Notes under the pieces: model-generated
What the model saw: only the letters and a program-made list of their open reading frames with translations
Databases searched by the model: none
What the model was told of the DNA's origin: nothing
Assembly: GCA_963736675.1 (NCBI GenBank)
Contig: CAVTPT010000001.1
Coordinates: forward strand, 101,671 to 165,670
Source of the DNA: an uncultured Bacteroidales bacterium
Lineage (GTDB): Bacteria > Bacteroidota > Bacteroidia > Bacteroidales > VadinHA17
Length of the DNA: 64,000 nucleotides
Direction: 5' to 3'
Part shown: in pieces, positions 43,301-64,000 of the stretch
How positions within the stretch are numbered: the stretch's first letter is position 1
Layout of the letters: each line of letters starts with the position of its first letter
Program-made: the position numbers and the translations under genes

Positions 43301-46300
43301 GTTAACTGCAATGGATCATCGACCGGATCGGTCAGAGTATTCATTGCAGGAGGAACACCACTCTATTCTTACCAATGGTATTATGACCAGTTCTTTGCCA
43401 GTCCCATACCGGGACAGATTTCTGCAGATGCAACTGGTCTGCCTGCCGGTACATATTATGTAAAGGTAACCGATATTAACGGCTGCTGGAAATCGGGCAG
43501 TATAACCCTGACTCAGCCACCGGCTATTACAGGTTCAGGGATAGTATCAACGGCAGTATCATGTTATGGGATAAATGACGCTATTATAACTGTCACTGCG
43601 ACAGGCGGTTCGGGCTCTCTTGAGTACGATCTTAACGGACTCAACATATGGAACAACACAGGAGTATTCAGCGGACTCGGAGCTGGAACTTATAGTATCA
43701 GGGTAAGGGATGCCCTGGCAGTATCCTGCATAGTAAATCTTCAGGATGTTGTAATAACTCAGCCTTCAGAGCTGTTGGTTTCTGTAACCAGTCAGGCAAA
43801 TGTTCTTTGCTTCGACGGAACTACCGGGGCAATTGGTGTTACCGTTTCGGGCGGTACTCTCCCAGCCGGTGGTTATTTGTTTAGCTGGACAGGATCTGAT
43901 TATCTTGGAAATGCTTTCACCAGTACTTCCGAGGACCTTAATGGTCTGAAGGCCGGAAGTTACGGTCTGACAGTAACTGATGCAAACGGATGTACGGCAA
44001 TTCTGCCACCCGTTACCATAACGCAACCTCCTGTACTGGCAGTCGCACTTGATTCTCAAACCAATGTACTTTGTTACGGCGAAACCAATGGTTCCATAAC
44101 CGTTACTGCCACCGGAGGTGCCGGACCTTATACCTATGCGTGGACCGGGACCAATTACCTCGGCGGAGCATATTTCAGTCCGGCAGAAGATATTTCCGGA
44201 CTCAGGGCAGGTACCTACAACCTGAGAGTAACTGATGCAAACGGTTGTCAGAGGGTACTTCCTGCCGTAATTGTTACACAGCCTGTAGCCCTTGTACTGG
44301 TTGTAGATGATAAAACAAATGTTCTGTGTTATGACGATGCTACAGGAGCTATAAATGTTACGGTTACCGGGGGTGTAATGCCTGCGGGAGGGTACCTGTA
44401 TGAATGGACAGGTACCGATTACCTGGGCAATCTCTTCAACAGCACCCTGGAAGACCTAGCAAGTCTTAAAGCAGGGAACTACGCTCTTACGGTTACCGAT
44501 GCCAATAACTGTGAAATTACATTGCCGGCTGTAAGTATTACTCAGCCACCTGATCTGACAGTTACCCTGAATGCAACCGTTGATGTACTTTGTCATGATG
44601 TCGCAACAGGAGCCGCATATATTACGGTTAGCGGAGGTGTTCAGCCAATCGGCGGGTATAGCTTTTCATGGAGCGGAACCGATTATCTGGGAAATCTTTA
44701 CAGCAGCACGGTTGAAGATCCTTCAGGACTGAAGGCAGGGACATATGACCTTGTTGTTACAGATCAGAACGGATGTACCGCAACCCTTTCAGATGTGGTG
44801 ATCAATCAGCCGCCCGACCTTACCGTGATAACCGAAGACCAGATAAATGTACTCTGTTATAACGGAACGAACGGGGAAATTGATGTTACAGTTTCGGGAG
44901 GTGTAATGCCTGCCGGAGGATATATCTATTCCTGGACCGGAGCTGATTACCTGGGTACATATTTTGCCAGTAGTTCGGAAGATCTGACAGGACTTAAAGC
45001 CGGCACATATAATCTGGCAGTAAGGGATGCCAATAGCTGCAGCGTTATTCTTCCGGCTGTTATAATCACCCAACCGGCTGCTTTCACAGTCAGCCTTGAC
45101 GGGAAAACTGATATTCTTTGCTATGACGAGTCAACAGGATCAATAAACGTGACTGTGGCGGGAGGTGTTGAACCTGCGGGAGGTTACCTGTTCACATGGA
45201 CCGGAACCGATTATACAGGTACTGCCTTCACAAGTACAGATGAGGATCTTACCGGACTTAAAGCAGGAACATACCTCTTGTCAGTTGGTGATGCAAATAA
45301 CTGTACGGTAAATCTTCCGGCAGTGACAATTACACAGCCGGCCGATCTGACAGTTTCTGTCAACAGTCAGGCAAATGTTCTGTGCTTCGACGGAACTACA
45401 GGGGCAATTAGTGTTACCATTTCGGGCGGTACTCTCCCAGCCGGTGGTTATTTGTTTAGCTGGACAGGATCTGATTATCTTGGAAATGCTTTCACCAGTA
45501 CCTCCGAGGACCTTAATGGTCTGAAGGCCGGAAGTTACGGTCTGACAGTAACTGATGCAAACGGATGTACGGCAATTCTGCCACCTGTTACCATATCGCA
45601 ACCTCCTGTACTGGCAGTCGCACTTGATTCTCAAACCAATGTACTTTGTTACGGCGAAACCAATGGTTCCATAACCGTTACTGCCACCGGAGGTGCCGGA
45701 CCTTATACCTATGCCTGGACCGGGACCAATTACCTCGGCGGAGCATATTTCAGTTCGGCAGAAGATATATCCGGACTCAGGGCAGGCACCTACAACCTGA
45801 GAGTAACTGATGCTAACGGTTGTCAGAGGTTGCTTCCTGCCGTAATTGTTACGCAGCCTGTAGCCCTTGTACTGGTTGTAGATGATAAAACAAATGTTCT
45901 GTGTCATGATGATGCTACAGGAGCTATAAATGTTACGGTTACCGGGGGTGTAATGCCTGCCGGAGGTTACATATATGAATGGACAGGTACCGATTACCTG
46001 GGTAATCTCTTCAACAGCACTCTGGAAGACCTCGCAGATCTTAAAGCAGGGAACTACGCTCTGACGGTTACCGATGCCAATAACTGTGAAATTACAATGC
46101 CAGCTGTAAGTATTACTCAACCACCTGATCTGACAGTTACCCTGAATGCAACCGTTGATGTGCTTTGTCATGATGCCGCAACAGGAGCCGCATATATTAC
46201 GGTTAGCGGAGGTGTTCAGCCAATCGGCGGGTATAGCTTTTCATGGAGCGGAACCGATTATCTGGGAAATCTTTACAGCAGCACGGTTGAAGATCCTTCA

Positions 46301-49300
46301 GGACTGAAGGCAGGGACATATGACCTTGTTGTTACAGATCAGAACGGATGTACCGCAACTCTTTCAGATGTGGTGATCAATCAGCCGCCCGACCTTACCG
46401 TGATAACCGAAGACCAGATAAATGTACTCTGTTATAACGGAACGAACGGGGAAATTGATGTTACAGTTTCGGGAGGTGTAATGCCTGCCGGAGGATATAT
46501 CTATTCCTGGACCGGAGCCGATTACCTGGGTACATATTTTGCCAGTAGTTCGGAAGATCTGACAGGACTCAAAGCCGGCACATATAATCTGACAGTAAGG
46601 GATAACAACAACTGTATAGTGACCCTCTCTACGGTCACAATTACCCAGCCACCGCAATTCACAGTGATCAGGGATGACCAGGTTAATATTTTGTGTCACG
46701 ACGGGGCAACAGGTGAAATAAACGTCACAGTATCGGGAGGTGTAATTCCTGCGGGAGGTTACATATACGAATGGACAGGGACTGATTACCTTGGAAATTC
46801 TTTCAGCAGCGCCGATGAAGATCTGGCTGGCCTTAAAGCAGGTATTTACAGTCTGACAGTTACCGATGCCAACGGTTGTGAGGCAGTGTTGCCATTGGTT
46901 TCACTGACCCAGCCGCCCGATCTGACAGTCACACTCCTGTCGGTGACAAATGTGATGTGTCACGATGCGGCAACAGGCGCGATCAATGTTAATGTCAGCG
47001 GTGGTGTAATGCCCGCAGGCGGTTATACATATACCTGGACCGGAACCGATTATCTTAATAATGCTTATTCAGGCAGTACAGAGGATCCTTCGGGACTTAA
47101 AGCTGGTACTTACGATCTCACAGTTACAGATAACAATATGTGTACGGTCGCTCTTTCCACAGTTACCGTATCGCAGCCTGACGACCTGACGGTGGTTCTG
47201 GAGGACCAGACCAATGTGCTGTGTTATGATGCGGCAACAGGTGCCATCGATATAACGGCGGCAGGAGGTGTAATGCCTTCAGGCGGCTATTATTATACAT
47301 GGACCGGCACAACCTACCAGGGCGGAGCCTTCAACAGCAATATGGAAGATCTTACCGGCATCAAAGCCGGCACCTATAACCTTACCGTTAGGGATGCCAA
47401 TGGCTGCAGTGTTATTCTTCCGGCTGTGATAATCACTCAACCGGCTGCTTTCACAGTCAGCCTTGATGGAAAAACTGATATCCTCTGCTATGACGAGTCA
47501 ACAGGATCAATAAACGTGACTGTGGCAGGAGGTGTTGTACCTGCGGGAGGTTACCTGTTCACCTGGACCGGAACCGATTATACGGGTACTGCCTTCACAA
47601 GCACAGATGAGGATCTTACCGGACTTAAAGCCGGAACTTACCTTTTGTCTGTTGGTGATGCAAATAACTGTACGGTAAATCTTCCGGCAGTGACAATTAC
47701 ACAGCCGGCCGATCTGGCAGTTTCTGTCAACAGTCAGGCAAATGTTCTGTGCTTCGGTGAAGCCACCGGAGCTATTTATGTGACAGTATCCGGAGGCACA
47801 ATACCAGCAGGAGGCTATTTGTTCAACTGGACCGGTACGGATTACATGGGCAATAGTTACACATCAAATGATGAAGATCTGGCAGGGCTCTATGCAGGTA
47901 CGTACAATCTGACCGTGACCGATCAGAACGGATGCAACGTTTCAATACTTCCTGTCACCATAACAGCACCTCTTCCACTGGTAATCGATGTGAATGTGAC
48001 AAGTAATTATAACGGAAGAGATATTAGTTGTACGGGAGCGTTTGATGGAAGAGCAACGGCAACAGTAACCGGCGGTACAGGTATATATTTCTATACCTGG
48101 TACAGCGATCCCGGATTCTCAGTTCCGATTGGACAGATGGCACCCTCTGCAATTAACCTTGCAGCCGGCGAATACTATGTCAGGGTTATGGATATGAATG
48201 GCTGTTCCATAACGGGCAGCGTAACACTCACCGACCCACCGTTGCTTGATGCATCAGTAGTCACCCTGACCAATGTTGACTGTTTCAACAATGCTACAGG
48301 GGCTGTTACTGTCGAGGCTGTTACTGGATCGGGTACAGGCCCGTATTCATATTCCAAAGACGGAGGATTTACCTGGCAACCTGCGGGTGAGTTCACAGGC
48401 CTGTCGGCAATGACATATACCATCCTTGTAAGAGATGCCAATAATTGTATTAAAGCGGTTCCTGTAATCATTACACAGCCTTCGCAGCTGATAGCCACAA
48501 TATCAGACTTTGACAATGTCTCATGTTCAGGAGGGAACGATGGAAGTGTGACCATCACGGTTCCGGCAGGCTCAGGTACTGCTCCGTACACTTACACCAT
48601 AAATGGAACTGACTGGCAACCGGGAGGAGCCTTCACGGGCTTGACAGCTGGCTCCTATAATATTGAGGTGAGAGATGATAATAATTGTTCGGTAATTCTA
48701 CCGGTCATTATTTCAGAGCCACCTTTGCTTGAACTGAATCCTACTGCTGACATTGTTCTCGATTGTTATGACGATCATGATGGAACAGGTACATTCTATG
48801 CCGTAGGAGGTACTCCCGGGTACACATTTACCCAGATATTAAACGGAGCAGATGCAACATTTGCTGCGCAGGGTTATAATTCACAGATAATATTTAATGC
48901 AGGAGCCGGTGTTGTTACGGTGATGGTTACCGATTCGAAAGGATGCAACACCGAGGCTTCAATTACATTTACCGAACCGGATATTCTTGAACCGGGGAGC
49001 ATCGGGAATGACCAGGTCCTGTGCTATGGAGAATCTCCGGCAGCACTTGTGCAGATTGATCCTCCGGATGGGGGACCGCTTCCGTTTGACTTTAAATTCC
49101 AGTGGCAGTATTCAGCCACAGGTTCGGAACCGTTCCTTAATATTTCAGGGGCTGTCCAGGAAGGGTTTACACCTGATTCTCCGGCAACAGGAACTCTCTA
49201 TTACAGGAGAATGGTGACATCCGGATTCTGTCAGCCGGTTTACAGCAATATTGTTGAAGTGCTTGTGAATCCGCGACCCATTGCAGTGTTGAGAGGAGGA

Positions 49301-52637: not shown

Positions 52638-53810
52638 ATGGACCTGATACCTTTTAATCTGAGCAATTACACTCTTGAGAACTATCTTCTGAAGATCACC
52701 ACACGCACCAGGATCATTTACTGGGTCATTATCGGGTATGCAATAGCCGCTATTGCTGCCCTGCCATTAATTTCGGTTGATGTCCCGGTACAGGCAAGAG
52801 GATTTTTTCAATCGGAGATAGAAAAACAGACAATCCTCGCTCCGTTTCAGGGAAGAGTCATATATGCATCCCTGAAGAACGGACAGTATATCAGAAAAGG
52901 AGATACCCTTTTAATAATTGACTCTGAAGCGTCAAGGGCGCAGAAGAGGTCGATCCTCGATAAGTTAATGAAGAATGATTCAGCCATATCAGATCTTGAA
53001 AAGCTGACCGTTCTCAGTAAGCCCGACGACAGGCTGAAAGCCTCTGATTTCAATACTGAGCGGTATTTTTCTGAATTCTCAGCCATGATTAAAACCTGGA
53101 ACATCCAGTATCAGAAATATCTGAAGGCAAGGGCTACTCACCAACGAAATGAAATTCTCCACGAAAAGGAGATAATCCCCGATAATGAATATGAGAATAC
53201 CCTTTATGTTTACAGATCGGAGGCGGAGAATCTTAATCAGGTCCTGATTCAGCATAAAAGTATGTGGCAGACCGACCTTTTACAGAGGAAGATTGATGCC
53301 GGCACATTTCAGGCTGAGCTGGGGAGGTATTCGGAGGAGCTTAATAACAGGATTGTGGTGTCGCCGGTCAGCGGAGATATCATACAGAGTGCTGACATCC
53401 AGGAAGGGACAATAGTATCAATTAATCAGCTGGTGGCTGAAATTTCGCCTGAGGGGAACCTGCTTGCTACCTGTTTTGTGAGACCATCCGACATTGGACT
53501 GATAAGAGCTGATCAAAAAGTGCGTATACAGGTTGATGCATTTAACTATAATGAATGGGGACTCTTAACGGCCAGTATACTTGATATCTCAAACGATATT
53601 ATAGTTCAAAACGGAAACGAGGCGTATTTCAGAATAAGATGCAAGCCTGAATCTGCCTCATTGTATATGAAGAACGGTCTTAAGGCTGATATCAGGAAAG
53701 GGATGAGCTTTAATGCCAGGATAATTGTCACAAGGCGGTCACTTTTTAACCTTTTATTTGATAAGGCCGACGACTGGTTTAATCCTTATTCAAACCAGGA
53801 GGAGGGATAG
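52638..53810 (+). CDS. HlyD-family membrane fusion protein
   Basis: Single N-terminal TM, QARGFF, LAPFQGRV, VRKGDTL-like IRKGDTLL, SPVSG, DIGLIRADQKVRIQVDAF..WG. Confidence 0.9.
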   Translation: MDLIPFNLSNYTLENYLLKITTRTRIIYWVIIGYAIAAIAALPLISVDVPVQARGFFQSEIEKQTILAPFQGRVIYASLKNGQYIRKGDTLLIIDSEASRAQKRSILDKLMKNDSAISDLEKLTVLSKPDDRLKASDFNTERYFSEFSAMIKTWNIQYQKYLKARATHQRNEILHEKEIIPDNEYENTLYVYRSEAENLNQVLIQHKSMWQTDLLQRKIDAGTFQAELGRYSEELNNRIVVSPVSGDIIQSADIQEGTIVSINQLVAEISPEGNLLATCFVRPSDIGLIRADQKVRIQVDAFNYNEWGLLTASILDISNDIIVQNGNEAYFRIRCKPESASLYMKNGLKADIRKGMSFNARIIVTRRSLFNLLFDKADDWFNPYSNQEEG

Positions 53811-53814
53811 AAAA

Positions 53815-55977
53815 ATGAATATCGGGATCAGACAGAGGGATATCTCCGATTGCGGGGCAGCCTGCCTTGCTTCAGTGGCAGCATGGTACAGGGTAAAGGT
53901 TCCGGTTTCAAGGATCAGGCAATATGCCGGGACCGATAAAAAAGGTACAAACGTACTTGGTCTGGTCGAGGCAGCAACAAAAATAGGATTTCTGGCAAAA
54001 GGTGTAAAAGGAGAGTGGGAGAGCCTGTTCAAGATTCCCCGGCCGGCAATAGCTCATGTTATTGTAAAAGGAGTACTGACACACTACGTGGTAATTGTAA
54101 ATATATCGGAATTAATTGTTGAAGTGATGGACCCCGCTGACGGGAAGCTTCACAAAATTTCTCACGAGGAGTTTAAGAAGCAGTGGACCGGGGTTCTCGT
54201 ACTGATCGTTCCGGGGGAGAAATTTACAATGAGGAATGAGGAAGTCGCAGTTACTGCACGGCTGTGGAGACTGATTAAGCCAAACCGCGGCGTACTTCTG
54301 CAGGCTCTTGCAGGGGCACTTTTATTTTCGGTATTGGGACTCTCAATGTCGCTCTATGTCGGCAGACTGGTTGACCATGTCATACCGGGAGGCAATCTGA
54401 ATCTTCTGAACCTGCTTGGCATCGTAATGATTGTCATAATTCTGTTCAGGATATTACTCAGCTTTTTCCAGTCTCTTTTTGTGCTCAGGACGGGTCAAAG
54501 GATAGATGCCTCGTTAATACTTGGATATTATCAGCACCTGCTGAGACTTCCGCAATCATTTTTCGACAATATGCGAACCGGGGAGATCATTTCCAGGATA
54601 GGCGATGCCGTAAAAATAAGGGTATTCATCAACGATGTAACTATTAATCTGATATTGAATATTTTCATCCTGTCGGTTTCCTTTATCCTTATGTTCACAT
54701 TTTTCTGGAAGCTTGCTCTTGTTATGCTCGTTGTTGTACCATTATATTTCTTAATCTATTATATATCCAACAGACTTAACAGGAGGGTGCAGCGAAAGGT
54801 AATGGAGCGTTCTGCAGATCTTGAAGCACAATTTGTGGAATCGCTTAATTCAGCGGGAACAATTAAGAGGTTTGGACTTGAGGAGTATTCAAATTTTAAA
54901 ACTGAGATCAGGTTTACGTCGTTGCTTGAGACTCTTTACAGTTCGGGATTGAATAATATCTTCTCTTCTCTCTCCAGCGGGCTGGTGACACAGCTTATAA
55001 CACTGCTTGTCCTCTGGACCGGAGCAGGATTTGTCCTTTCTGCCCTGATCACTCCCGGCGAATTGCTTTCCTTTTATGCTGTTACCGGGTACTTCACCGG
55101 GCCTGTCACGGGGATAATAGGTTTTAACCGGACCCTGCAGGATGCCAGAATAGCAGCTGACCGTTTATTTGAAATATTTGATCTTGATACGGATGATGAA
55201 TCAGGCAGGATCGAACTTAAGAAAGAGATGGTTGATGATATAAGTTTTGAAGATGTCAGGTTCAGGTACGGAACAAGAGTTGAGGTCTTCAGATCGCTGA
55301 ACCTCAAAATCAGGAAAGGAGAGATAACAGCAATAGCCGGGGAGAGCGGATCAGGCAAGAGTACTCTTGTATCGTTGCTGCAGAACCTTTACCCACTGCA
55401 GGAAGGACATATCAGTATCGGAAGGTATAACCTTCTTCATCTGACAAACAGCTCCATCAGGAAAATTATTTCTGTGGTGCCTCAGAAGATTGATCTTTTT
55501 GCAGGTAATATCTTCGACAATATAGCACCTGGTGAAATCACGCCCGATACTGAAAAGGTAATGGCTGTATGCGAAAAGCTTGGGATGACTCAATTTGTTG
55601 AGAGCCTGCCAAATGGTTTCAGCACCTATATCGGGGAAAACGGAGTGGCCCTTTCAGGGGGACAGAGACAGAGGATCGCAATTGCCAGAGCTCTCTACGG
55701 CGATCCTGAAATAGTGATCCTCGATGAGGCTACCTCTTCTCTTGATGCCCTGGCGGAGATGTTTGTACGTAATGCGCTGAAGATACTTCGTGATGAGGGT
55801 AAAACGGTAATTCTGATAGCTCACAGACTCTCTACCATTAATCTGGCCGACAGTATCATTGTACTTGACAGGGGCGAAGTTGTCCAGAATGGCACATATC
55901 GCGAGTTGTCAGCTGCTGAGGGGCATTTCCGTAAGATGTATTTTCAACAGGGGATTTTAGAAACAGTAACAACCTAA
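53815..55977 (+). CDS. Peptidase-containing ABC transporter (C39 + ABC; double-glycine peptide exporter)
   Basis: QRDISDCGAACL (catalytic Cys), THYVVI, MDPADG; Walker A GESGSGKST, LSGGQRQ, VILDE; start MNIG at 53815. Confidence 0.95.
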   Translation: MNIGIRQRDISDCGAACLASVAAWYRVKVPVSRIRQYAGTDKKGTNVLGLVEAATKIGFLAKGVKGEWESLFKIPRPAIAHVIVKGVLTHYVVIVNISELIVEVMDPADGKLHKISHEEFKKQWTGVLVLIVPGEKFTMRNEEVAVTARLWRLIKPNRGVLLQALAGALLFSVLGLSMSLYVGRLVDHVIPGGNLNLLNLLGIVMIVIILFRILLSFFQSLFVLRTGQRIDASLILGYYQHLLRLPQSFFDNMRTGEIISRIGDAVKIRVFINDVTINLILNIFILSVSFILMFTFFWKLALVMLVVVPLYFLIYYISNRLNRRVQRKVMERSADLEAQFVESLNSAGTIKRFGLEEYSNFKTEIRFTSLLETLYSSGLNNIFSSLSSGLVTQLITLLVLWTGAGFVLSALITPGELLSFYAVTGYFTGPVTGIIGFNRTLQDARIAADRLFEIFDLDTDDESGRIELKKEMVDDISFEDVRFRYGTRVEVFRSLNLKIRKGEITAIAGESGSGKSTLVSLLQNLYPLQEGHISIGRYNLLHLTNSSIRKIISVVPQKIDLFAGNIFDNIAPGEITPDTEKVMAVCEKLGMTQFVESLPNGFSTYIGENGVALSGGQRQRIAIARALYGDPEIVILDEATSSLDALAEMFVRNALKILRDEGKTVILIAHRLSTINLADSIIVLDRGEVVQNGTYRELSAAEGHFRKMYFQQGILETVTT

Positions 55978-55989
55978 ACACTATATGTC

Positions 55990-56331
55990 ATGAAAATATT
56001 TGAATATCTCGATCGCATCGGCAGAATGCACAAGCTGGTTCAAAGGCGGAGAACCGGGACCCCGGAGGAATTTGCGCGGCAGCTGGGCGTAAGCCGTACA
56101 AGTCTGTATGAGTTAATTGATGAATTAAGATCGCGGGGTGCTCCTATTTCTTATTCAAAGGCAGCAAAGACTTATTACTACAGCGAGCCTTTTGATATAT
56201 CAGTAACATGTTCTCTCCGGCCCATGACATACCTTGAGGAAAAACAGGTGTCGGGGGGGAATATTTTCGATAGAATCCTTTTTTTCCGGATCTTAAGTAC
56301 TGAAATTAGTGGTACTGTATTTCAGTGCTAA
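55990..56331 (+). CDS. Small winged-HTH DNA-binding protein with a C-terminal double-glycine-leader-like extension
   Basis: TGTPEEFARQLGVSRTSLYELIDELRSRGAPISY; tail SLRPMTYLEEKQVSGG-NIFDRILFF. Confidence 0.78.
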   Translation: MKIFEYLDRIGRMHKLVQRRRTGTPEEFARQLGVSRTSLYELIDELRSRGAPISYSKAAKTYYYSEPFDISVTCSLRPMTYLEEKQVSGGNIFDRILFFRILSTEISGTVFQC

Positions 56332-56383
56332 AACCCCTGGCCTATAAATGGGGGATCAAAAAAATTAATTAAATTTAATTGTC

Positions 56384-56566
56384 ATGAAAATTGAAAATTT
56401 TTCCGTAAGAGAACTGACCTCCGAGGAGCAGATCCAGATCAACGGAGGAGGCTTTTTTGCTGATGTGTGGGGTGCGATATGCACAGCCGCAAAATGGATT
56501 TGGGAAAATGTAACCTTTTCAGTGGAGTACCAAACCGGTGATTATACATGGAAGGCTTCAACATGA
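56384..56566 (+). CDS. Double-glycine leader peptide precursor (class II bacteriocin-like, Trp-rich core)
   Basis: Leader MKIENFSVRELTSEEQIQINGG fits L-S/T-x-x-E-x-x-x-I-x-G-G; downstream of a C39 PCAT; AT-rich ribosome-binding region. Confidence 0.88.
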   Translation: MKIENFSVRELTSEEQIQINGGGFFADVWGAICTAAKWIWENVTFSVEYQTGDYTWKAST

Positions 56567-56583
56567 AAACTTTTGAATGGTGT

Positions 56584-56613
56584 AAGAGATCAGGAATTCA
56601 TTCCTGATCTCTT
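56584..56613 (+). terminator. Perfect 14-bp hairpin after the peptide gene (terminator or mRNA stabiliser)
   Basis: aagagatcaggaat-tc-attcctgatctctt; no strong U-tract. Confidence 0.6.
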
Positions 56614-56630
56614 GATAATAATATTATTGA

Positions 56631-57824
56631 GTGAAAACTATACTGATTTTGATAAATAAAAACTTCATTGTGAAATACTATTTTATATTATTCTTTCTGG
56701 TTCAATTTTTTAACATTAATTCATTATTTTCTCAAATTAAAGTGAGAATTCAACTTGTTGAAAAAGAATCAAAGTTGACTATTCCTTTTGCATACATAAA
56801 GGTTCCGAGTAAAAATATTGTTTTGAATTCAGATCAGGATGGTTTCTTTTCTACCGAATTATCTAAGAATGACACAATTGAAATAACTCATGTTGCATAT
56901 AAGAGTCTAAGAATTGCATATTCGGATATAGGAAAAAATGCCACAATAGAATTAGATGAATTACCAGTACTACTTAATCCTATAATTATTAGTTCAAAAA
57001 ATGCGGAAATAACTGTTAAAAGAGCGATTGGGGCCACTTACGAATCAATGCAAACTCCAATGAATTTTTCCTGTTTTCGCAAAGATCAAATTACAATAAA
57101 CGATACTTTAGTGACTGAGGCGGATGCAGAAATAATTTATAAACTGAAGAAATTGAATTCTGCTAGTCACGGGGGAAATTTAAAGAGTTATTTAATAAAT
57201 GTTCATGTTTATAAGAATTCTTTGTTTAATAAATTAATGATCCCTAATTATTTTCTTGGGGCGATTTTTGCTCCAATAAACACATTTATTGCCGGGTTTT
57301 CAAAAAATGATGATCAATTATTAAATTTCAGTTATCAAGAAGGAAACGATTCTTTGATTATCGTAGGGGCGAAACCAAAAAAAAATATAAGACCAAAAAA
57401 TGGGGAATTAATAAAACAAGGCAATTTTGTAATAAATAAAAACACTGGAAAATTAATTCAAATTGTAACAAGTTTAAGTCCTGAGATGATGGAATGGGGA
57501 CGGAACAATTCTTCCAGAGAAAAAAATCCTAATCTTTTTTATTATCATTATACATTCTCTCAATATTTTGATCAGGAAGGATTTCCGTCAAGGGTGTCTT
57601 GCAGTATAAAGTTTTCCATTAAAGAAGATAATCCCAATAAAATATGGAGTAATAATTCAGAGCTAATTTTTACAAAATTGTCCCAGGACGATTTAATATT
57701 GGATAAATCCCATGAATTGAATAATGATTCTACCCTTGTCCAGATGAAATCCAGATTTGATCCTGATTTTGAAAAGAGGTTCACCAGATATATTCCTTCT
57801 ACCGGAACCGATAATAATCAATAA
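56631..57824 (+). CDS. Secreted protein with N-terminal CarboxypepD_reg-like domain
   Basis: Signal-like N-terminus, IPFAYIKV...NSDQDGFF...DTIEITHVAYK; very AT-rich; start uncertain (56631 or 56658). Confidence 0.7.
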   Translation: MKTILILINKNFIVKYYFILFFLVQFFNINSLFSQIKVRIQLVEKESKLTIPFAYIKVPSKNIVLNSDQDGFFSTELSKNDTIEITHVAYKSLRIAYSDIGKNATIELDELPVLLNPIIISSKNAEITVKRAIGATYESMQTPMNFSCFRKDQITINDTLVTEADAEIIYKLKKLNSASHGGNLKSYLINVHVYKNSLFNKLMIPNYFLGAIFAPINTFIAGFSKNDDQLLNFSYQEGNDSLIIVGAKPKKNIRPKNGELIKQGNFVINKNTGKLIQIVTSLSPEMMEWGRNNSSREKNPNLFYYHYTFSQYFDQEGFPSRVSCSIKFSIKEDNPNKIWSNNSELIFTKLSQDDLILDKSHELNNDSTLVQMKSRFDPDFEKRFTRYIPSTGTDNNQ

Positions 57825-58042
57825 TTTTAAAGACGGGGTAATCCCGGGGATATATATCCCGATGAAAGACCGGAACTTATTCCTGTAAATATTCCGTGCC
57901 AGCCAGTTACTGGCAGCCCCATCAAAAAAACTATTTCGCCCGCTACGGGGCTTGAATATCATTTGTATATAATATAGGACGGGCTTCGCCCATCCCTGTG
58001 GTATTTCAGGCCTACGGCCTTTAAATCAGAGTGAGAGTGAGT

Positions 58043-59160
58043 GTGAGGAAATCCATTGCACAGAAATAGTACAGCTCTATAAATTGGGTCTGTTTGTATG
58101 AATGCCTGAGCATCTGAATCTGAACGCTGTCAGTGCGGACTACTTTAAACAATCTGGTCACAATTGGATTTGAGCTCCGTAGGAGCGGCCTGTTTGTAGT
58201 AACGCCTGCCCCCTAACGGTTTTAAGCACCGTCAGCGCGGCCTGTAGTTAATTGAAGACAGGTAAATTCCTTTAAGGGTTTTGGATCAACAAGGGTTTCA
58301 TGTCTCCCAAAACAACAGAATCAAAAAACCAGTCCGCCCTGACGGGGCTCGATATTCTTTTCATGATTGATTTCTACAAACAGTCCGCCCCCACGGGGCT
58401 GAAGAAGGAGCGAGAGTGAGGAAATCCATTGCACAGAAATAGTACAGCTCTATAAATTGGATTTGTTTATAGAAATACCTGAGACCTCAGGATCTGAGCA
58501 CCGTCGGCGCGGCCTTCCTGTAACAATCTGGTCACCATTGGTTTTGAGCTCCGTAGGAGCGGCCTGTTTGTAGTAATGCCTGCCCCCTAACGGTTTTAAG
58601 CACCCTCAGCGCGGCCTGTAGTTAATTGAAGACAGGTAAATTCCTTTAAGGGTTTTGGATCAACAAGGGTTTCATGTCTCCCAAAACAACAGAATCAAAA
58701 AACCAGTCCGCCCTGACGGGGCTCGATATTCTTTTCATGATTGATTTCTACAAACAGTCCGCCCCCACGGGGCTGAAGAAGGAGCGAGAGTGAGTAAATC
58801 CATTGCACAGAAATAGTACAGCTCTATAAATTGGATTTGTTTGTAGAAATACCTGAGACCTCAGGATCTGAGCGCCGTAGGTGCGGCCTTCCTGTAACAA
58901 TCTGGTCACCATTGGTTTTGAGCTCCGTAGGAGCGGCCTGTTTGTAGTAACGCCTGCCTCCAACGGTTTTGAGCGCCGTCAGCGCGGCCTGTAGTTAATT
59001 GAAGACAGGTAATTTCCTTTAAGGGTTTTGGATCACCAAGGGTCTCATGTCTCCCGAAACAACAGAATCAATAACCAGTCCGCCCTGACGGGGCTCGATT
59101 TTCTTTTCATGATTGATTTCTACAAACAGTCCGCCCCCACGGGGCTGAAGAAAGAGTGAG
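58043..59160. repeat. Three tandem ~374-bp units built from REP-like hairpins in both orientations (BIME-like)
   Basis: aaatccattgcacag at 58049, 58422, 58796; agctccgtaggagcggcctgtttgtag (58173) inverted against ctacaaacagtccgcccccacggggct (58374). Confidence 0.9.
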
Positions 59161-59173
59161 AGTGAGAGCAGGT

Positions 59174-59220
59174 AAAAAGAGAGTCCCCGGATGTGGATTA
59201 CCAGCGAAAATCCGGGGACT
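59174..59220 (-). terminator. Intrinsic terminator, - strand, unit 1
   Basis: agtccccggat/atccggggact stem followed on the - strand by ctcttttt. Confidence 0.7.
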
Positions 59221-59543
59221 CGAACCGTTCATATGATGCCTGAACGGTCATCAAGCACAGTGAAACGCAGCGAAAGTGCCTGAAAAATCAGGAGAAGGCA
59301 TTATCAATCGGAACTAATTTTCTGCTCTGCTTTATAAATGGGAAATCATATTAAGCATTTTTTTCAGAATCATATTCATTAACCTGTTCACATTGTACTA
59401 CAATTTTAAAAAGACCCGGGGACACAAAAATGAGCAAAGCATATGTTCTACAGCATATTATTGATAATTTATATCTGTTACATAGGATTTTCAGATCGTG
59501 CTATATATTTAATCTTGTAGAAAAAGTGAGTGTGAGGACAGGT

Positions 59544-59589
59544 AAAAAAAGAGTCCCCGGATATTGATCAGCAACAATAATCCGGGGAC
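59544..59589 (-). terminator. Intrinsic terminator, - strand, unit 2
   Basis: gtccccggat/atccggggac stem followed on the - strand by tcttttttt. Confidence 0.72.
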
Positions 59590-59780
59590 ATGGTTTTGAA
59601 AACCAACCGTTCATATGATGCCTGAACGGTCATCAAGCACGGTGAAATGCAGCGAAAGTGCCTGAAAGTCAGGAGGAGGCATTGTCAATAGGAGCTAATC
59701 TTCTGCTCTGCTGTATAAGTGGAGGTTCATATTAAACATTTTTTTCAGAATCATATTCATTAACCTGTTCACATTGTACT
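59544..59780 (-). ncRNA. Candidate ~230-nt structured small RNA (second copy ~59174-59400)
   Basis: No conserved ORF above 21 aa, conserved hairpins, own terminator, duplicated. Confidence 0.3.
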
Positions 59781-59838
59781 ACAATTTTAAAAAGACCCGG
59801 GGACACAAAAATGGACAAAGCGTATGATCTACAACATA

Positions 59839-60048
59839 TTATTGATAATTTTCGTCTGTTACATAGCTTTTTCTGATCGGACAGTATCTTATCTCATTGC
59901 CCGATTTCCGGAGTTCAGAAATAATCCGTTTGACACTTCTTTCACTAATTTCAAGTCTTGTCGCAAGCTCTGCAGGAGTCCCGGTGCACTTTAGGGAAAC
60001 AAGCCTGCTTATCCTGACTTTCAGATTATGACTATTGTTCCTGGCCAT
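59839..60048 (-). CDS. Small winged-HTH protein, paralog of 55990-56331
   Basis: TGTPAELATRLEISERSVKRIISELRKSGNEIRY..RKSY. Confidence 0.8.
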   Translation of the reverse strand: MARNNSHNLKVRISRLVSLKCTGTPAELATRLEISERSVKRIISELRKSGNEIRYCPIRKSYVTDENYQ

Positions 60049-60228
60049 AATATTCAGATTTAATTACCATTAAATCGAGGCAGACAGTATAAAATTAAAC
60101 CTTATCTGAATAAAAGTCAAGAAATTTTAGGGATTTTTAGTAAATACTTTAGAGACAGATTCCTTAACAGGATTTCTGATCAACTTTTTTCCGGTTCAGG
60201 TAAGATATAAAAAGAAGTAACAAACATA

Positions 60229-62016
60229 TCACCTTTCAAACCTGCTGTTTTGCTTTGTATACATTGCGAAATAGAGCCCGCCTTTTTTCATCAGTTCCCC
60301 GTGGGTGCCCGATTCAATAATTTCACCCCTGTCAAGTACAATGATCTTATCGGCCAGCGAGACATTTGTAAAACGGTGACTAATCAGGATGGCTGTCCTG
60401 TCGCTGACTGTTTCCCTGAACCTGCTGAAGATCTCAAATTCGGTGTCTGCATCCAGAGCGCTCGACGGCTCATCGAGAATAAGTACAGGGGCATCCCTGA
60501 ATATGGCCCTCGCCAGGGCAATTTTCTGCCATTCCCCCCAGCTAAGCTCCCTGCTGTCGTCAAGAAGGGTCCCGATATTTGTATCGTAACCTTCAGGAAG
60601 TGAGCTGATCAGTTCATGAACCCCCGACTCCAGGGCTGCTTTCTTTATCTTAATTTCAGGATCAGCTGAATCAAGATCACCAATCCGGATATTTTCTCCT
60701 GCCCTGAGGTTGTACAGCATAAAGTCCTGGAAAACCACTGAAAAGAGTCTTCTGTACTTTTCAGGATCAATGTTCCTTATGTTATTACCATCGATTCTGA
60801 CCGACCCGGTAGCCGGATCATATAACCTTGTCAGAAGTCGTACAAGGGTACTTTTACCCCCGCCGTTAGGTCCTACAACAGCCAGTATCTCCCCTTTTTT
60901 GATCTCAAAGGATACATTGTTTATTGCCGGGGATTTATTACCCGGATATGTAAATGACAGATTCTCAACCTCTATATTTTTCATAAGGGTTGAAACTGAT
61001 ACAACAGGAGGTGCAGCTGTTATTTTTTCTTCAAGGCTGAGGAATTCAAATGTATCGCCAATGAAAAGACTATCCTCATAAAGCCCTGCCAGCGAGCCAA
61101 AAAGCTCTTTAATAAATATCATACCCTGACGGAATGCGAGAAGGAACATTGCCATCTCACCGAGAGTCAGACTGTTATTTATTGTTTTGTTTACGGTGAA
61201 CAGGATAAGGAAAAGCATTGCGGCAGCTTTCACAATATCCGAGACTATCTCAATAAGCATTCTCTTCCGGGCAATGTTGATTTCCTCTTCCTTAACACTA
61301 AGAAATGATTTCCGGAAGAGGCTGATGAAATACTCCCCAAGTCCGAATAATCTCAATTCCCGTGACGGTCTCTCCCCGGTTATCAGCCAGTTGAAATATG
61401 CCGACCTCCTTGATTCGGGGGTCTGTTCTCTCTGAAAAGTATAAAGAACATCGGCGTAATGTAGTCTGAGCCAGATCCCCGGGATATTCACAACAAACAG
61501 AAGCAGTGCCATGGTCCAGTGAAGAGAAACAAGAAGAAATGCCATCATGATCAGAGAAAGTAATGCCCGCATCATCAGAATAAGGTTATTCAGAATGCTG
61601 TTGGGCCGCCATGGAGCTTCCCTTGCAGCCCGGGTCAGCAAGTCGAAATATCCGGGATATTCGAAATTGATAAGGTCGAGTTTTACAGCCTTTGAATGAA
61701 GCAGATTGTACATGTGGATCTCCAGCTTCATCGATTGTTTCTTCTTGACATAATTGCCGAAATCGGAGACAGCTTCATCGATAAAATATAATATTACAAC
61801 AGCAGCAATGATCCCTATAATATCATTAATGGATTTATCTCCTGTGTCAGAAACCGTGAGTGTTATCTGATCGACAAGAATTTTTATAAGCAGGAGCAGA
61901 GCAAGGGGTGTGAAGCTGCGGATAACAGAGACCAGTGTGTTAACAAGCGCCCATCCGGGTGCACTCTGCCAGACAAGGACCAGTGATTCCCGGAACAACT
62001 TATACTTTTCTCTCAT
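60229..62016 (-). CDS. ABC exporter, fused permease/ATPase (RiPP-cassette type)
   Basis: Six TM segments, GPNGGGKST, LSWGEWQKIALAR, ILDEPSSALD, LISHR. Confidence 0.92.
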   Translation of the reverse strand: MREKYKLFRESLVLVWQSAPGWALVNTLVSVIRSFTPLALLLLIKILVDQITLTVSDTGDKSINDIIGIIAAVVILYFIDEAVSDFGNYVKKKQSMKLEIHMYNLLHSKAVKLDLINFEYPGYFDLLTRAAREAPWRPNSILNNLILMMRALLSLIMMAFLLVSLHWTMALLLFVVNIPGIWLRLHYADVLYTFQREQTPESRRSAYFNWLITGERPSRELRLFGLGEYFISLFRKSFLSVKEEEINIARKRMLIEIVSDIVKAAAMLFLILFTVNKTINNSLTLGEMAMFLLAFRQGMIFIKELFGSLAGLYEDSLFIGDTFEFLSLEEKITAAPPVVSVSTLMKNIEVENLSFTYPGNKSPAINNVSFEIKKGEILAVVGPNGGGKSTLVRLLTRLYDPATGSVRIDGNNIRNIDPEKYRRLFSVVFQDFMLYNLRAGENIRIGDLDSADPEIKIKKAALESGVHELISSLPEGYDTNIGTLLDDSRELSWGEWQKIALARAIFRDAPVLILDEPSSALDADTEFEIFSRFRETVSDRTAILISHRFTNVSLADKIIVLDRGEIIESGTHGELMKKGGLYFAMYTKQNSRFER

Positions 62017-62491
62017 CCGTATATAAGTTATTTTTAAAGATCATTTTTATCCTGTTAAATCTCAATACAAACCATACCAGCACCCTGTTTACCGGATACA
62101 GGGGATTATGGTCCGAAGTCAGGCTACGGGTCAGCAGAATTCCCCGGTTGTTTTGAATCTTTATGACTTTCCCGGCTATCTGATCTTCCGGAACCGGCTG
62201 GTCTTCATGCATGCAGCTGTCTCCTCTTGTTATGTAAAGTGTCCGTTCCCCCTCGTTAAGCTTCCGGACTATCCTGTGAACTACAAAGCCTGAATCCCTT
62301 TTCCATGCAATTATTTCACCGGCAACCGGCACATTTTCCTGGCTGAAAGGTTCAATATAGATAGTTGATCCCGGTTCTATGGCAGGGAACATACTGTAAC
62401 CACAGGCTTTTATCTTCAGGATTGTGCCTTCGGAAAGAAGGGTAAAACCGATATCTTTCAATGTAGTATGGATCGGCTTCTCCTTATTCAT
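62000..62491 (-). CDS. S24/S26 (signal-peptidase-like) peptidase
   Basis: GYSMFP (catalytic Ser), GEIIAW, VVHRIV, ITRGD; start likely MNKEK at 62491, overlapping the upstream stop. Confidence 0.8.
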   Translation of the reverse strand: MNKEKPIHTTLKDIGFTLLSEGTILKIKACGYSMFPAIEPGSTIYIEPFSQENVPVAGEIIAWKRDSGFVVHRIVRKLNEGERTLYITRGDSCMHEDQPVPEDQIAGKVIKIQNNRGILLTRSLTSDHNPLYPVNRVLVWFVLRFNRIKMIFKNNLYTDERKV

Positions 62492-63371
62492 TTTCGAGTA
62501 TGTAATCAATTACCCTGCGGGTGGGTGTGAACGAAAGCGAAGCGACCGGTATTACAGAACACATTATGGAGACTGAACCAAGGAAACGGGCAATCATTTC
62601 CGGATCCCAGTTATGTTGTATGCAGTTGGCAATCACATGACTGATGGCTGAGGCTCCTTTAACAGGGGTAATCCTGTTACATGTACCATGTTCCAGCAGA
62701 AAGATCCTGTCGAGCGGCGATTGTAAAGGTTCATCGTCCCTGTAGACAGGGGTGTTGAACATCCTGTAAGTCCCTCCGATGCTTCTTATAATAAGCCTGT
62801 CGTCATGAATAACCTTAGCTCCGGATTCATCCCAAAGTTTGGCCATTGTCGTTTTACCTTTCCCGGAAACACCGCTGAAAAGATAACCATGGCCCGAAAT
62901 ATTTATTCCTGAAGCATGGATCATAATATCACCGAGTATGGCTGTAAGATAATAAAGTATCAGACCATCCATCGGATATTCAAGAGGATCGACCGGGGCT
63001 TCATGGCTTTCAATCCAGAGGTCCCATTCACGGAGAAGCAATGAAAATTTAAGAGAAGCAGTTTTTTTCAGGGAGGTGTCAGGGAAGGAACAGGTGATAA
63101 ACATATCGGAACCACGCCTGTAAACACTCCAGAAATTTTCTCTTTTCTGGACCTTGATTCCCTTAAGTTCTACGATATAAGGAGCCACAAAAACTCTTTC
63201 CGCTTCTTCAGGAATACGGTATTCTCCGGTATGGACCCTGATCAGAACGTCGTAATCGCTCTGTCGAACAATATTCCTGAGAAACCTTTCGGCTGGTAAA
63301 AGATCGGGACCGCCGGCGGTTGCCTCCAGCCTGATATTATACCCGGCGATATTCAGATTATAATCCCTCAT
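62484..63371 (-). CDS. HPr-kinase-related P-loop protein (ScmC/lasso-kinase-like)
   Basis: MIHASGI..G.GYLFSGVSGKGKTT, VIHDDRLII, FNTP. Confidence 0.78.
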   Translation of the reverse strand: MRDYNLNIAGYNIRLEATAGGPDLLPAERFLRNIVRQSDYDVLIRVHTGEYRIPEEAERVFVAPYIVELKGIKVQKRENFWSVYRRGSDMFITCSFPDTSLKKTASLKFSLLLREWDLWIESHEAPVDPLEYPMDGLILYYLTAILGDIMIHASGINISGHGYLFSGVSGKGKTTMAKLWDESGAKVIHDDRLIIRSIGGTYRMFNTPVYRDDEPLQSPLDRIFLLEHGTCNRITPVKGASAISHVIANCIQHNWDPEMIARFLGSVSIMCSVIPVASLSFTPTRRVIDYILENE

Positions 63372-63460
63372 CCGGTTAGGTACATTTTCCGTTTTTCAAT
63401 ATCTGTCCGACAAAACCGAAGGAAATGAAATTCCTGCTGATCTGCCGGCTCTTTATACTG

Positions 63461-63748
63461 TTAGTATTTGATAACCAGATACTCATTCAGGTTGTTGACA
63501 AATGAGAAGACATCTTCCGATGCAGTTGGAATATCAACATTGTATTCTTCAGTAAGATATCTGATAATTTCCTCTAAATTCCGTTTACCATCAATATGCT
63601 CCCATATAAAAGCGCCTGTCTCGTTCAGTGTATACACACTATCCATATCGGCGATATTATCCCGTACCGGTACAAGGATGAACTCATTTCCGGTTTTTCT
63701 CGTCACTATTGAAGGAGACCGGGCAATAACTGATTTCAGATTAATCAT
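63461..63748 (-). CDS. PqqD-family peptide-binding chaperone (RiPP recognition element)
   Basis: 95 aa; VYTLNETGAFIWEHIDGKRNLEEII..L.EEYNV. Confidence 0.9.
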   Translation of the reverse strand: MINLKSVIARSPSIVTRKTGNEFILVPVRDNIADMDSVYTLNETGAFIWEHIDGKRNLEEIIRYLTEEYNVDIPTASEDVFSFVNNLNEYLVIKY

Positions 63749-64000
63749 TATTTGAAATCAATGTCCTTAAAGTTATGTTGTATCATATTTAATATTAACA
63801 CAATAAAGAAATATTATTTATTGCCGCAACTGATTCTGAAACAGGAGCTGCTTAAGATGCAATATACAATATTAGTGACAGAATCTCATTGACCTGGAAA
63901 GACAAAAATATGCGGATTTTATATGAGGGGAACCCGGGTTCTGACATTTCAGTTAAAATTTCAGGAATGGAGCGGGAATTTTGATTTTGCACTAATTGTA

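Follow-up and report, generated by a model that had tools for sequence, protein, structure and literature searches.

The LPP pathway is a peptide-modifying system encoded by lppA-K-B-S-D-N in Paenibacillus alginolyticus DSM5050 (Popov et al., Nat Commun 2026, PMC13381572). In this pathway, a linear core peptide is polyphosphorylated by an HprK-like kinase, LppK, and the product carries several phosphates on one core Ser and has lost its leader. Thr is not accepted by LppK in place of Ser3. The precursor gene is adjacent to the enzyme genes and encodes a leader of the form YxxPxVLxHQxIxFETxxS, whose Tyr and Pro are held by residues N33, Y60, D70, and F74 of LppB. LppS is a SpI-like serine peptidase that replaces the lasso B2 protease; it has an S29/H68/D93 triad, and its cleavage is RRE-dependent. 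Leaving out K abolished phosphorylation and made cleavage poor, whereas leaving out S gave a full-length peptide bearing phosphate. LPP was declared restricted to Bacillota (PMC13381572). Supplementary Data 1 of the same study also lists, in SSN cluster 8, an RRE-associated SpI-ABC fusion from Paludibacter propionicigenes and from a Porphyromonadaceae MAG; these entries stand in the supplementary table only, and precursor and kinase are not recorded for them (PMC13381572).

The window, a 64,000-nucleotide stretch of DNA from an uncultured Bacteroidales bacterium, is read here with reasonable though not full confidence as the enzyme-coding part of an LPP-type system that matures and exports a peptide and whose genes are split between two loci; no biochemical or expression data exist for any Bacteroidales member. 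The system is not described in a 2023 paper on RiPP mining in Bacteroidales (PMC10352776). Four intact ORFs on the - strand encode a PqqD-type protein, an HPrK-like protein, a peptidase, and an ABC exporter. The overlapping stops and starts reported in an earlier note on this DNA are real: the peptidase and ABC ORFs share 17 nt, with the ABC start lying over the peptidase stop, and the kinase and peptidase ORFs share 26 nt. The PqqD and kinase genes are spaced 89 nt apart.

The first product, B, is a discrete, LppB-like RRE of the PqqD type with 95 residues (63461..63748, - strand; PF05402, 63.7 bits). It is 28% identical to LppB over 47 aa, and its residues N42, Y69, D79, and F83 are observed to align with the leader-holding residues of LppB (alignment to 9x8z_B). 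B matches LppB with an E value of 0.12 versus 3e-4 for lasso B1 proteins; since the RRE is not nearer to LppB than to lasso B1, descent from LPP cannot be distinguished from convergent assembly. K is an LppK-like, HPr-kinase-like P-loop protein of 295 aa (62484..63371, - strand) with a precomputed assignment to PF27840 ‘ScmC’ and weak matches to HprK C-terminal families. Its motifs H152-A-S-G, G167-x-S-G-x-G-K-T, and H189-D-D-R are invariant, and the P-loop and HDD motifs are in register with the HprK/P active site. The top PDB folds found with its AF2 model (pLDDT 73.7) are all HprK/P, with probabilities of 0.97-0.99 and an E value of 1e-3.

S is a soluble, LppS-like signal peptidase I of the archaeal type (S26B) with 169 residues (62000..62509, - strand). 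It scores 56 bits against TIGR02228, where the cut-off is 51.85, and matches PF00717 weakly. BLASTP aligns it with LppS at 28% identity over 103 aa (E 1e-12), and S39/H78/D97/D103 fall on LppS S29/H68/D87/D93 with identical spacing. D is an LppD-like, MsbA-like ABC exporter of 595 aa (60229..62016, - strand; PF00664 and PF00005) in which permease and ATPase are fused and a C39 peptidase domain is lacking. Among NCBIfam models, MsbA scores best (280 bits, under the cut-off of that model).

The cassette is conserved, and its synteny was observed directly in 84 related loci fetched from 80 species-representative genomes and 4 other assemblies. The kinase gene is present in 84/84 loci, with homologues of the RRE in 83, the peptidase in 81, the ABC exporter in 77, and RNase R in 79. 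No conserved small ORF was found in the RRE-kinase, peptidase-ABC, or ABC-HTH gaps of 80 loci; where these gaps are larger, they are occupied by a 129-aa inserted gene of the GxxExxY type, by repeats, or by the N gene discussed below. A frequent fifth cassette gene encodes a small HTH_11 protein of 69 aa (59839..60048, - strand), which matches PF08279 with an E value of 3e-5 and 24.2 bits, slightly below the 25-bit cut-off. A homologue of this gene is present in 56/84 loci and lies downstream of the ABC gene in 50 aligned loci; a paralogue, 38% identical, is encoded at 55990-56331. Across the HTH stop codon runs a conserved element of about 100 nt (59768..59886), consisting of an imperfect palindrome and a CCATTTTTCTGTCCCCGG box. 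A second copy lies at 59387-59505, and over 20 loci from other species carry the element in the same place at 75-85% nucleotide identity. The palindrome was rejected as a shared operator, being neither enriched in the genome nor present near the N-X-A locus or the cassette promoter.

Upstream of the PqqD gene, the 250-300 bp without a clear gene are a divergent intergenic spacer shared with RNase R (63749..63995), a likely promoter region with no precursor inside; in most relatives the spacer is about 71 bp. A single TAnnTTTG motif, of the Bacteroidetes -7 promoter type, lies here at 63903-63910 on the - strand, upstream of PqqD; it was set aside, as the motif shows no enrichment across the window. 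A 52-aa ORF at 63852-64010, the sole sizeable one here, was likewise discarded as a precursor: it has no homologue in the 84 loci, where the spacer usually measures 71 bp. Rfam and tRNA scans of 54000-64000 gave no matches. The earlier statement that cyclase, radical SAM, and visible precursor are all missing also stands. Beyond base 64000, the inspected flank carries RNase R, IspG, CysS, MetH, MetF, and MetK, and downstream of the cassette are the HTH gene, repeats, and a separate PCAT system. No radical SAM gene occurs in the 20 kb past the window or downstream of the cassette, and neither a macrolactam cyclase nor a B2 protease lies in the cassette flanks; the B2 family (PF13471/Transglut_core3) is absent from the entire 100%-complete genome. 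An HMM of the precursor family described next matches nothing in the whole window, nor anything within 8 kb of the cassette in the 84 loci.

The candidate precursor A is a 60-aa peptide encoded on the - strand at C1:95611-95790, with the sequence MSVRKQYIRPEIIRVGLDNTISLVMMTDFVPNPPPRGRGLDKKGLDEPAFESPFGDKPFS. Its gene, single-copy in the genome, belongs to a satellite locus with the order N, X, A, at a distance of 68 kb from the cassette. N, which the window’s cassette lacks, is a PF14907 nucleotidyltransferase (152 bits; C1:99133-100272) and the sole copy in the genome, while X is a 972-aa T9SS type-A cargo protein. The locus adjoins a capsule locus (UpxY/Wza/Wzc). The AF2 model of X contains a confident N-terminal beta-helix and C-terminal sandwich domains; its middle part (530-745) is the most conserved, yet has a pLDDT of only 30-50.

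The peptide family, about 60 aa long, has an ungapped leader Y-x-x-P ... D ... I-S ... [S/T] and matches no family in Pfam or NCBIfam. Across 45 distinct peptides, Y0, P3, D11, and [S/T]20 are invariant, with I14 in 40 and S15 in 41; S15, at Tyr+15, has the same offset as LppA T-1. Position 20 is Thr in 15/45, including the peptide of this genome. That this invariant position is often Thr, a residue LppK did not accept in place of Ser3, is a point against the LPP-type reading. In distant Bacteroidales relatives, the peptide gene lies between the RRE and kinase genes in the order X-B-A-K-S-D, and in one locus (L104) the order is X-A-B-K-S-D. Precursor genes nearly always directly follow a gene for an X-family T9SS protein, and some genomes have 5 or 6 X-A pairs alongside one B-K-S-D cassette. 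The YxxP peptide 68 kb away is most likely the substrate of the cassette, which supports the suggestion in the earlier note of a substrate encoded in trans.

Linkage in cis in these relatives is an observed fact, and so is the co-occurrence of peptide and cassette. In one sample of 301 Bacteroidales genomes, 26 have kinase and peptide, 6 the peptide only, 10 the kinase only, and 259 neither (Fisher p = 8e-24), so that the kinase is found in 26/32 peptide-bearing genomes. Several peptide-only genomes are incomplete (G203, G280, and G281; 78-87% complete), and 5 of the 10 kinase-only genomes rest on weak kinase matches. The 10 kinase-positive genomes without a detectable peptide and the 6 peptide-positive ones without the kinase count against the LPP-type reading, as does the same-genus genome G245, which has the kinase but no peptide.

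Within the clade, 14/16 genomes have exactly one peptide gene; conservation is strong in the leader of these peptides and extends to the core, which ends in PF(E/Q)SPFGDKPF(G/S). N is single-copy in 13/16 clade genomes, missing in two, and doubled in one. It directly follows the ABC gene in 8 genomes and lies within 10 kb of A in 6 others and in this one. N thus alternates between cassette and peptide locus, a pattern difficult to account for unless the two share a function. L127 and L128 share the capsule and N-X-A arrangement in synteny; in L129, X-A stands without N, which the cassette of the same MAG carries.

In the proposed mechanism, the RRE protein B would bind the YxxP leader of the ribosomal precursor A, and K would phosphorylate a Ser/Thr shortly after the leader. 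The soluble Ser/His/Asp enzyme S would then cut the leader off the RRE-presented peptide, and MsbA-like D would carry the product over the inner membrane to the periplasm. Placing A in register with LppA, whose Tyr is at -16 and which is cut after -1, predicts cleavage after S22 and T27 as the phosphate acceptor. LppA has F at -3, but the residue at -3 of the cut predicted for A is not hydrophobic. The product would be linear, given the serine SpI-like peptidase and the lack of a nearby cyclase and, genome-wide, of a B2 protease. The proposal of a phosphorylated linear peptide, with an S26 enzyme in place of B2, is supported by the enzyme set, which matches LPP, and by the alignment with LppS; phosphorylation itself is inferred from homology. 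The cut site, periplasmic export, and any role of N or X are also inferences. The two alternatives offered earlier, a minimal linear pathway and action in trans, are supported as a single reading in which both hold.

A more specific extension is that the Bacteroidales LPP-type machinery is functionally tied to the T9SS cargo X, and that the peptide meets X in the periplasm instead of being a free, antibiotic-like product. This remains a tentative idea that is more doubtful than not. Under it, the peptide might be a partner or modifier of X, or else its escort or surface anchor, and the phosphopeptide could perhaps be further modified by N and by enzymes of the adjacent capsule locus.

The rival that survives best is a vertically inherited housekeeping device that has no RiPP-like product now, may act on a cellular protein or lipid-linked substrate, and has only a historical link to YxxP peptides. 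In its support, the clade cassette sits in core genes with RNase R beside it in 79/84 loci, no locus has a precursor inside 8 kb (0/84), G245 of the same genus has the kinase with no peptide detected, and the transporter is MsbA-like, the lipid-flippase type. It nevertheless remains improbable, as clade genomes so regularly keep exactly one peptide gene with conserved leader and core, the RRE retains its leader-binding residues, and N switches between the cassette and the peptide locus.

A service to local small peptides, above all the double-glycine-leader peptide at 56384-56566, instead of the YxxP peptide, is very unlikely. Some 4-8 kb downstream, convergently oriented, are this 60-aa peptide, a paralogous HTH gene, and an export system, and the neighbourhood recurs in L008, L059, L062, L070, and L071. 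These are only 5 of the 84 loci, and the peptide comes with a C39-peptidase ABC transporter and HlyD partner of its own and lacks a YxxP motif; distant relatives, by contrast, have the YxxP peptide gene within the cassette. No more credible is a decaying, functionless remnant, which could invoke the missing precursor and N in cis and, in some relatives, the repeats and GxxExxY-type gene inserted between the RRE and kinase genes. The four ORFs are intact with conserved catalytic motifs, the overlapping stop and start codons are preserved, and the kinase keeps 59-73% identity over the 80 species-representative loci; an alignment of 19 kinase sequences has 75 invariant positions. That the cassette is the tail of a standard lasso or radical-SAM (SynChlorMet/GeoRSP-type) cluster with core enzymes outside the window could cite the known PqqD and HprK-like pairs of paeninodin-type lasso and SynChlorMet cassettes, the Pfam name ScmC, and weak matches to TIGR04249 ScmC (24.5 bits) and TIGR04355 (27 bits), but is already refuted for this genome by the housekeeping genes past 64000 with their regular RNase R, the downstream content, the genome-wide lack of a B2 protease, and ScmC and HprK-related-B scores far under the cut-offs of 125 and 200 bits. 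The condition that the earlier note named as refuting its own proposal, such a standard cluster in the adjacent sequence, is therefore not fulfilled.

Under the LPP-type reading, what is new is a candidate precursor family for Bacteroidales LPP-type cassettes. An enzyme logic declared Bacillota-only in 2026 is met in another phylum, where about one in eight of the 301 sampled Bacteroidales genomes carries the system. In this clade the system has a fixed place among core genes, while the peptides worked on are encoded elsewhere. The precursor family offers experimental handles that Bacillota clusters did not: a defined peptide whose Tyr, Pro, Asp, and Ser/Thr are invariant and whose cut site can be predicted, X as a possible protein partner with a traceable fate, and a link to a capsule locus. 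For genome mining, it cautions that a RiPP cassette without a precursor in cis may have a well-conserved one 68 kb away.

Compared with SynChlorMet (ScmA-F; TIGR04248, TIGR04249), the cassette has a PqqD-like protein and a kinase of family PF27840 ‘ScmC’ but no radical SAM/SPASM enzymes (ScmE/ScmF) nearby. Equivalog scores reach 24.5 of the 125 bits set for ScmC and 30.3 of 100 for ScmD; the relation suggested earlier holds for the domain family and nothing beyond it. Paeninodin-type systems (padeA-C-B1-B2-D-K) likewise pair a discrete PqqD RRE for a [Y/W]xxP leader with an HprK-like kinase that works on the precursor, and they too have an ABC exporter and, in many cases, a nucleotidyltransferase; they differ in having the cyclase and B2 cysteine protease that this genome’s cassette and genome, respectively, lack. 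The Paludibacter and Porphyromonadaceae fusions probably belong to the same system family as the window cassette, as they too place a Bacteroidales SpI-like peptidase beside a PqqD RRE and couple it to an ABC exporter, although in one protein of about 745 aa versus two overlapping genes here.

LPP itself differs in phylum (Bacillota versus Bacteroidota), in gene order (A-K-B-S-D-N versus B-(A)-K-S-D), and in being patchy and mobile, whereas the Bacteroidales enzyme genes sit among core genes in conserved synteny. The LPP precursor gene is adjacent; none was met in the window, and the candidate is encoded in trans, with A, together with N and X, tens of kb from the enzyme genes in this clade and a T9SS cargo gene ahead of it. 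S and B are no more than about 28% identical to LppS and LppB, and the leaders have only YxxPx[VI] in common, with D11, I14-S15, and [S/T]20 in place of the HQxIxFET part. As a diderm cell is involved, the ABC exporter on its own would take the product no farther than the periplasm. Against these differences, a candidate YxxP-leader precursor, kinase, RRE, SpI-like peptidase, MsbA-like exporter, and, outside the cassette, a PF14907-type nucleotidyltransferase are all encoded in the genome, the catalytic and leader-binding residues are in register, 15 residues run from the Tyr to the predicted cut, and a capsular polysaccharide locus lies nearby in both systems.

The minus-strand cassette at the end of the window encodes an ABC exporter (D, 60229-62016), a signal-peptidase-like protein (S, 62000-62509), an HPr-kinase-like protein (K, 62484-63371), and a PqqD-type RRE protein (B, 63461-63748). 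Stop-to-start overlaps join the exporter and peptidase genes (17 nt) and the peptidase and kinase genes (26 nt), and 89 nt separate the kinase and PqqD genes. The exporter has ABC_membrane and ABC_tran matches, with MsbA as its best NCBIfam match, and no C39 domain was found in it by profile search. The peptidase passes the curated threshold of TIGR02228 (archaeal-type signal peptidase I), and the RRE protein matches PF05402 at 63.7 bits. The kinase gave only weak HprK matches in the profile search of the window, but related proteins are assigned to the newer Pfam family PF27840 (‘ScmC’). Its family profile contains H-A-S-G, G-x-S-G-x-G-K-T, and H-D-D-R motifs that align with the HprK/P active site, and the top PDB matches of its AF2 model (pLDDT 73.7) are all HprK/P. 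The four-gene set described in the earlier note is confirmed by its ORFs and by profile searches.

There are more than 1000 related kinase-like proteins; the best 120 are 61-72% identical to the window kinase, and all source names, where given, are Bacteroidales, Bacteroidia, or Bacteroidota. Nearly all of the 84 related loci fetched (80 from species-representative genomes) contain RNase R and a divergent RRE-kinase-peptidase-ABC set, the arrangement seen here, and 56 contain a homologue of the 69-aa HTH gene. In about 15 loci, the ABC gene is directly followed by a gene of 390 aa, homologous to the genome’s PF14907 (NTP_transf_5) nucleotidyltransferase gene (N) and missing from the window’s cassette. 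Several relatives, namely L026 (7552-7941), L043 (5981-6370), L062, L071, and L086, have an additional 129-aa gene (MYKEVSQEEDRIGREIVNAAF...LINFNVPLIKNGIKRMVI), possibly of the GxxExxY type, between their RRE and kinase genes. Degraded copies are found in L054, L066, and L082, and the pattern is that of a mobile insert within the operon.

Past base 64000 lie divergent RNase R, IspG, CysS, MetH, MetF, and MetK; none of these genes encodes a cyclase, a B2 protease, or a radical SAM enzyme, and no PF13471 protease is present anywhere in the complete genome. The cassette is thus not the tail of an adjoining lasso cyclase/B2 or radical SAM set, which would have refuted the earlier reading. No conserved small ORF occurs in the RNase R-RRE, RRE-kinase, peptidase-ABC, or ABC-HTH gaps of related loci.

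A candidate precursor came from the hunt for the missing N gene, which identified a single PF14907 homologue at C1:99133-100272, slightly outside the window (C1:101671-165670). Downstream on the same strand are a 972-aa protein gene (X) and a 60-aa ORF (A, MSVRKQYIRPEIIRVGLDNTISLVMMTDFVPNPPPRGRGLDKKGLDEPAFESPFGDKPFS), which together with N form a satellite locus 68 kb from the cassette. X is a T9SS cargo protein, combining a signal peptide and a T9SS type-A sorting domain with a beta-helix and a choice-of-anchor Q domain. Peptide A matches no Pfam or NCBIfam family and has relatives in other Bacteroidales. In an ungapped alignment of 45 distinct members, numbered from Tyr (Y0), Y0, P3, D11, and [S/T]20 never vary, I14 is kept in 40 and S15 in 41, and a Pro/Gly/Asp-rich stretch comes next. 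The peptide is almost absent outside Bacteroidales: in a phylum-level sample of 401 genomes, a single genome from outside the order had a weak match.

Neither the window nor any of the 84 cassette loci gives a match to the peptide HMM, so the substrate is always encoded in trans in the window’s clade. The cassette itself contains the peptide gene in distant relatives, whose kinases are 25-40% identical, in the order X-B-A-K-S-D (L100, L105), B-A-K-S-D (L103, L106, L091), or X-A-B-K-S-D (L104). In one sample of 301 Bacteroidales genomes, the peptide profile was found in 32, the kinase profile in 36, and both in 26 (Fisher p = 8e-24), a co-occurrence that covers about 20 families. Peptide and kinase genes are adjacent in 15 of these 26 genomes; in the rest, peptides are dispersed, with up to six per genome. 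The earlier interpretation, a pathway for a phosphorylated linear peptide or one acting on a substrate encoded elsewhere, is supported, with YxxP-type peptide A of the satellite locus as the candidate substrate.

Thirteen of 16 clade genomes have one copy of N, two have none, and one has two copies. N is found either immediately 3′ of the ABC gene, as in 8 genomes, or no more than 10 kb from the peptide gene, as in 6 genomes and the window’s own. The arrangement of capsule genes and N-X-A also occurs on the chromosome of cassette locus L083 and in the MAG of L008, and the MAG that has N in its cassette has an X-A pair without N. An X-family gene is directly 5′ of 26 of 43 peptide genes on the same strand, sometimes with an RRE gene intervening. 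In L094 (G087:C1:143953-147042), an extra RRE gene lies between the X and peptide genes and the kinase cassette is on a different contig; a copy of the RRE gene can thus move together with an X-A pair. New here are the complementarity of N, the X-A pairing, and the precursor family with its cis-to-trans history.

X orthologues across the clade are 50-73% identical. The AF2 model of X is confident for the beta-helix and C-terminal sandwich domains and not for the most conserved middle region, so the activity of X is unknown. A second X protein of the same genome, a paralogue encoded at C5:315588-317117, is 26% identical, and no peptide gene of the A family was detected beside it. Because the cell is diderm and the MsbA-like exporter lacks an outer-membrane partner, cargo would be released into the periplasm. 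T9SS cargo transits the periplasm, and we infer that the exported peptide and X would meet there. Any role of N and X in the pathway remains a prediction.

On its 3′ side, the exporter gene is followed by the 69-aa HTH gene, a pair of non-coding tandem-repeat blocks, and a low-GC ORF. A 381-nt unit (59146-59890, two copies) duplicates the 3′ end of the HTH gene and sequence beyond. In over 20 other species, about 100 nt of it are kept directly 3′ of the HTH gene at 75-85% nucleotide identity, with a palindrome (ATATGTTGTATAACATAT) followed by a CCATTTTTCTGTCCCCGG box; the window’s own palindrome copies (GTATGATCTACAACATAT and ATATGTTCTACAGCATAT) are degenerate. The function of this element is unknown, with a terminator, an operator, or an antisense promoter as options. 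The other block (58035-59166) holds three tandem copies of a 374-nt unit, 93-95% identical, without an ORF or Rfam match; fragments are dispersed on contigs C2 and C4 (18 blastn hits, 15 outside the array). The 397-aa ORF (56631-57824) lies in an island of 28-30% GC (surroundings ~44%), has a weak CarboxypepD_reg-like match, and has a 35% identical homologue at the equivalent position in L008. A foreign origin is possible, as is a role as accessory or immunity-type gene of the neighboring double-glycine peptide system. That separate bacteriocin-type export system (52638-56566), convergent with the cassette and adjoining it in only 5 of the 84 loci, comprises an HlyD-family protein (52638-53810), a C39-peptidase ABC transporter (53725-55977), a 113-aa HTH protein 38% identical to its cassette paralogue (55990-56331), and a 60-aa double-glycine-leader peptide (MKIENFSVRELTSEEQIQINGGG..., 56384-56566). 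Directly 5′ of its HlyD and PCAT genes is a single plus-strand ORF of 4030 aa (40145-52237).

The closest comparison is the linear polyphosphorylated peptide (LPP) pathway of Paenibacillus, described in 2026, which has the gene order lppA-K-B-S-D-N and the leader YxxPxVLxHQxIxFETxxS, and is stated to be restricted to Bacillota (PMC13381572). LppK puts several phosphates on core Ser3, and the SpI-like LppS (S29/H68/D93) cuts off the leader only upon presentation by LppB (PMC13381572). Its Supplementary Data 1, the source of the LppS and LppB sequences aligned here, also includes two SpI-ABC fusion proteins from Bacteroidales that have an RRE neighbor and belong to an unanalysed network cluster (PMC13381572). 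The window peptidase is 28% identical to LppS (E 1e-12), and its S39, H78, D97, and D103 align with S29, H68, D87, and D93 at identical spacing. The window RRE aligns with LppB and its crystal-structure chain 9x8z_B and is no nearer in sequence to LppB than to lasso B1 proteins. Its N42, Y69, D79, and F83 align with LppB N33, Y60, D70, and F74, the residues that grip the leader Tyr and Pro (PMC13381572). S15 of the peptide family lies at Tyr+15, exactly the spacing in LppA between Y-16 and the cut site behind T-1. For peptide A, cleavage after S22, phosphorylation itself, and T27 as the phosphate acceptor are predictions. Although the cassette shares the enzyme-level features of LPP, it lacks an adjacent precursor bearing the LPP leader, and for this reason the locus is not classed as an LPP member. 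The evidence instead supports its assignment as the enzyme-encoding half of an LPP-type system, outside the phylum to which LPP was said to be confined.
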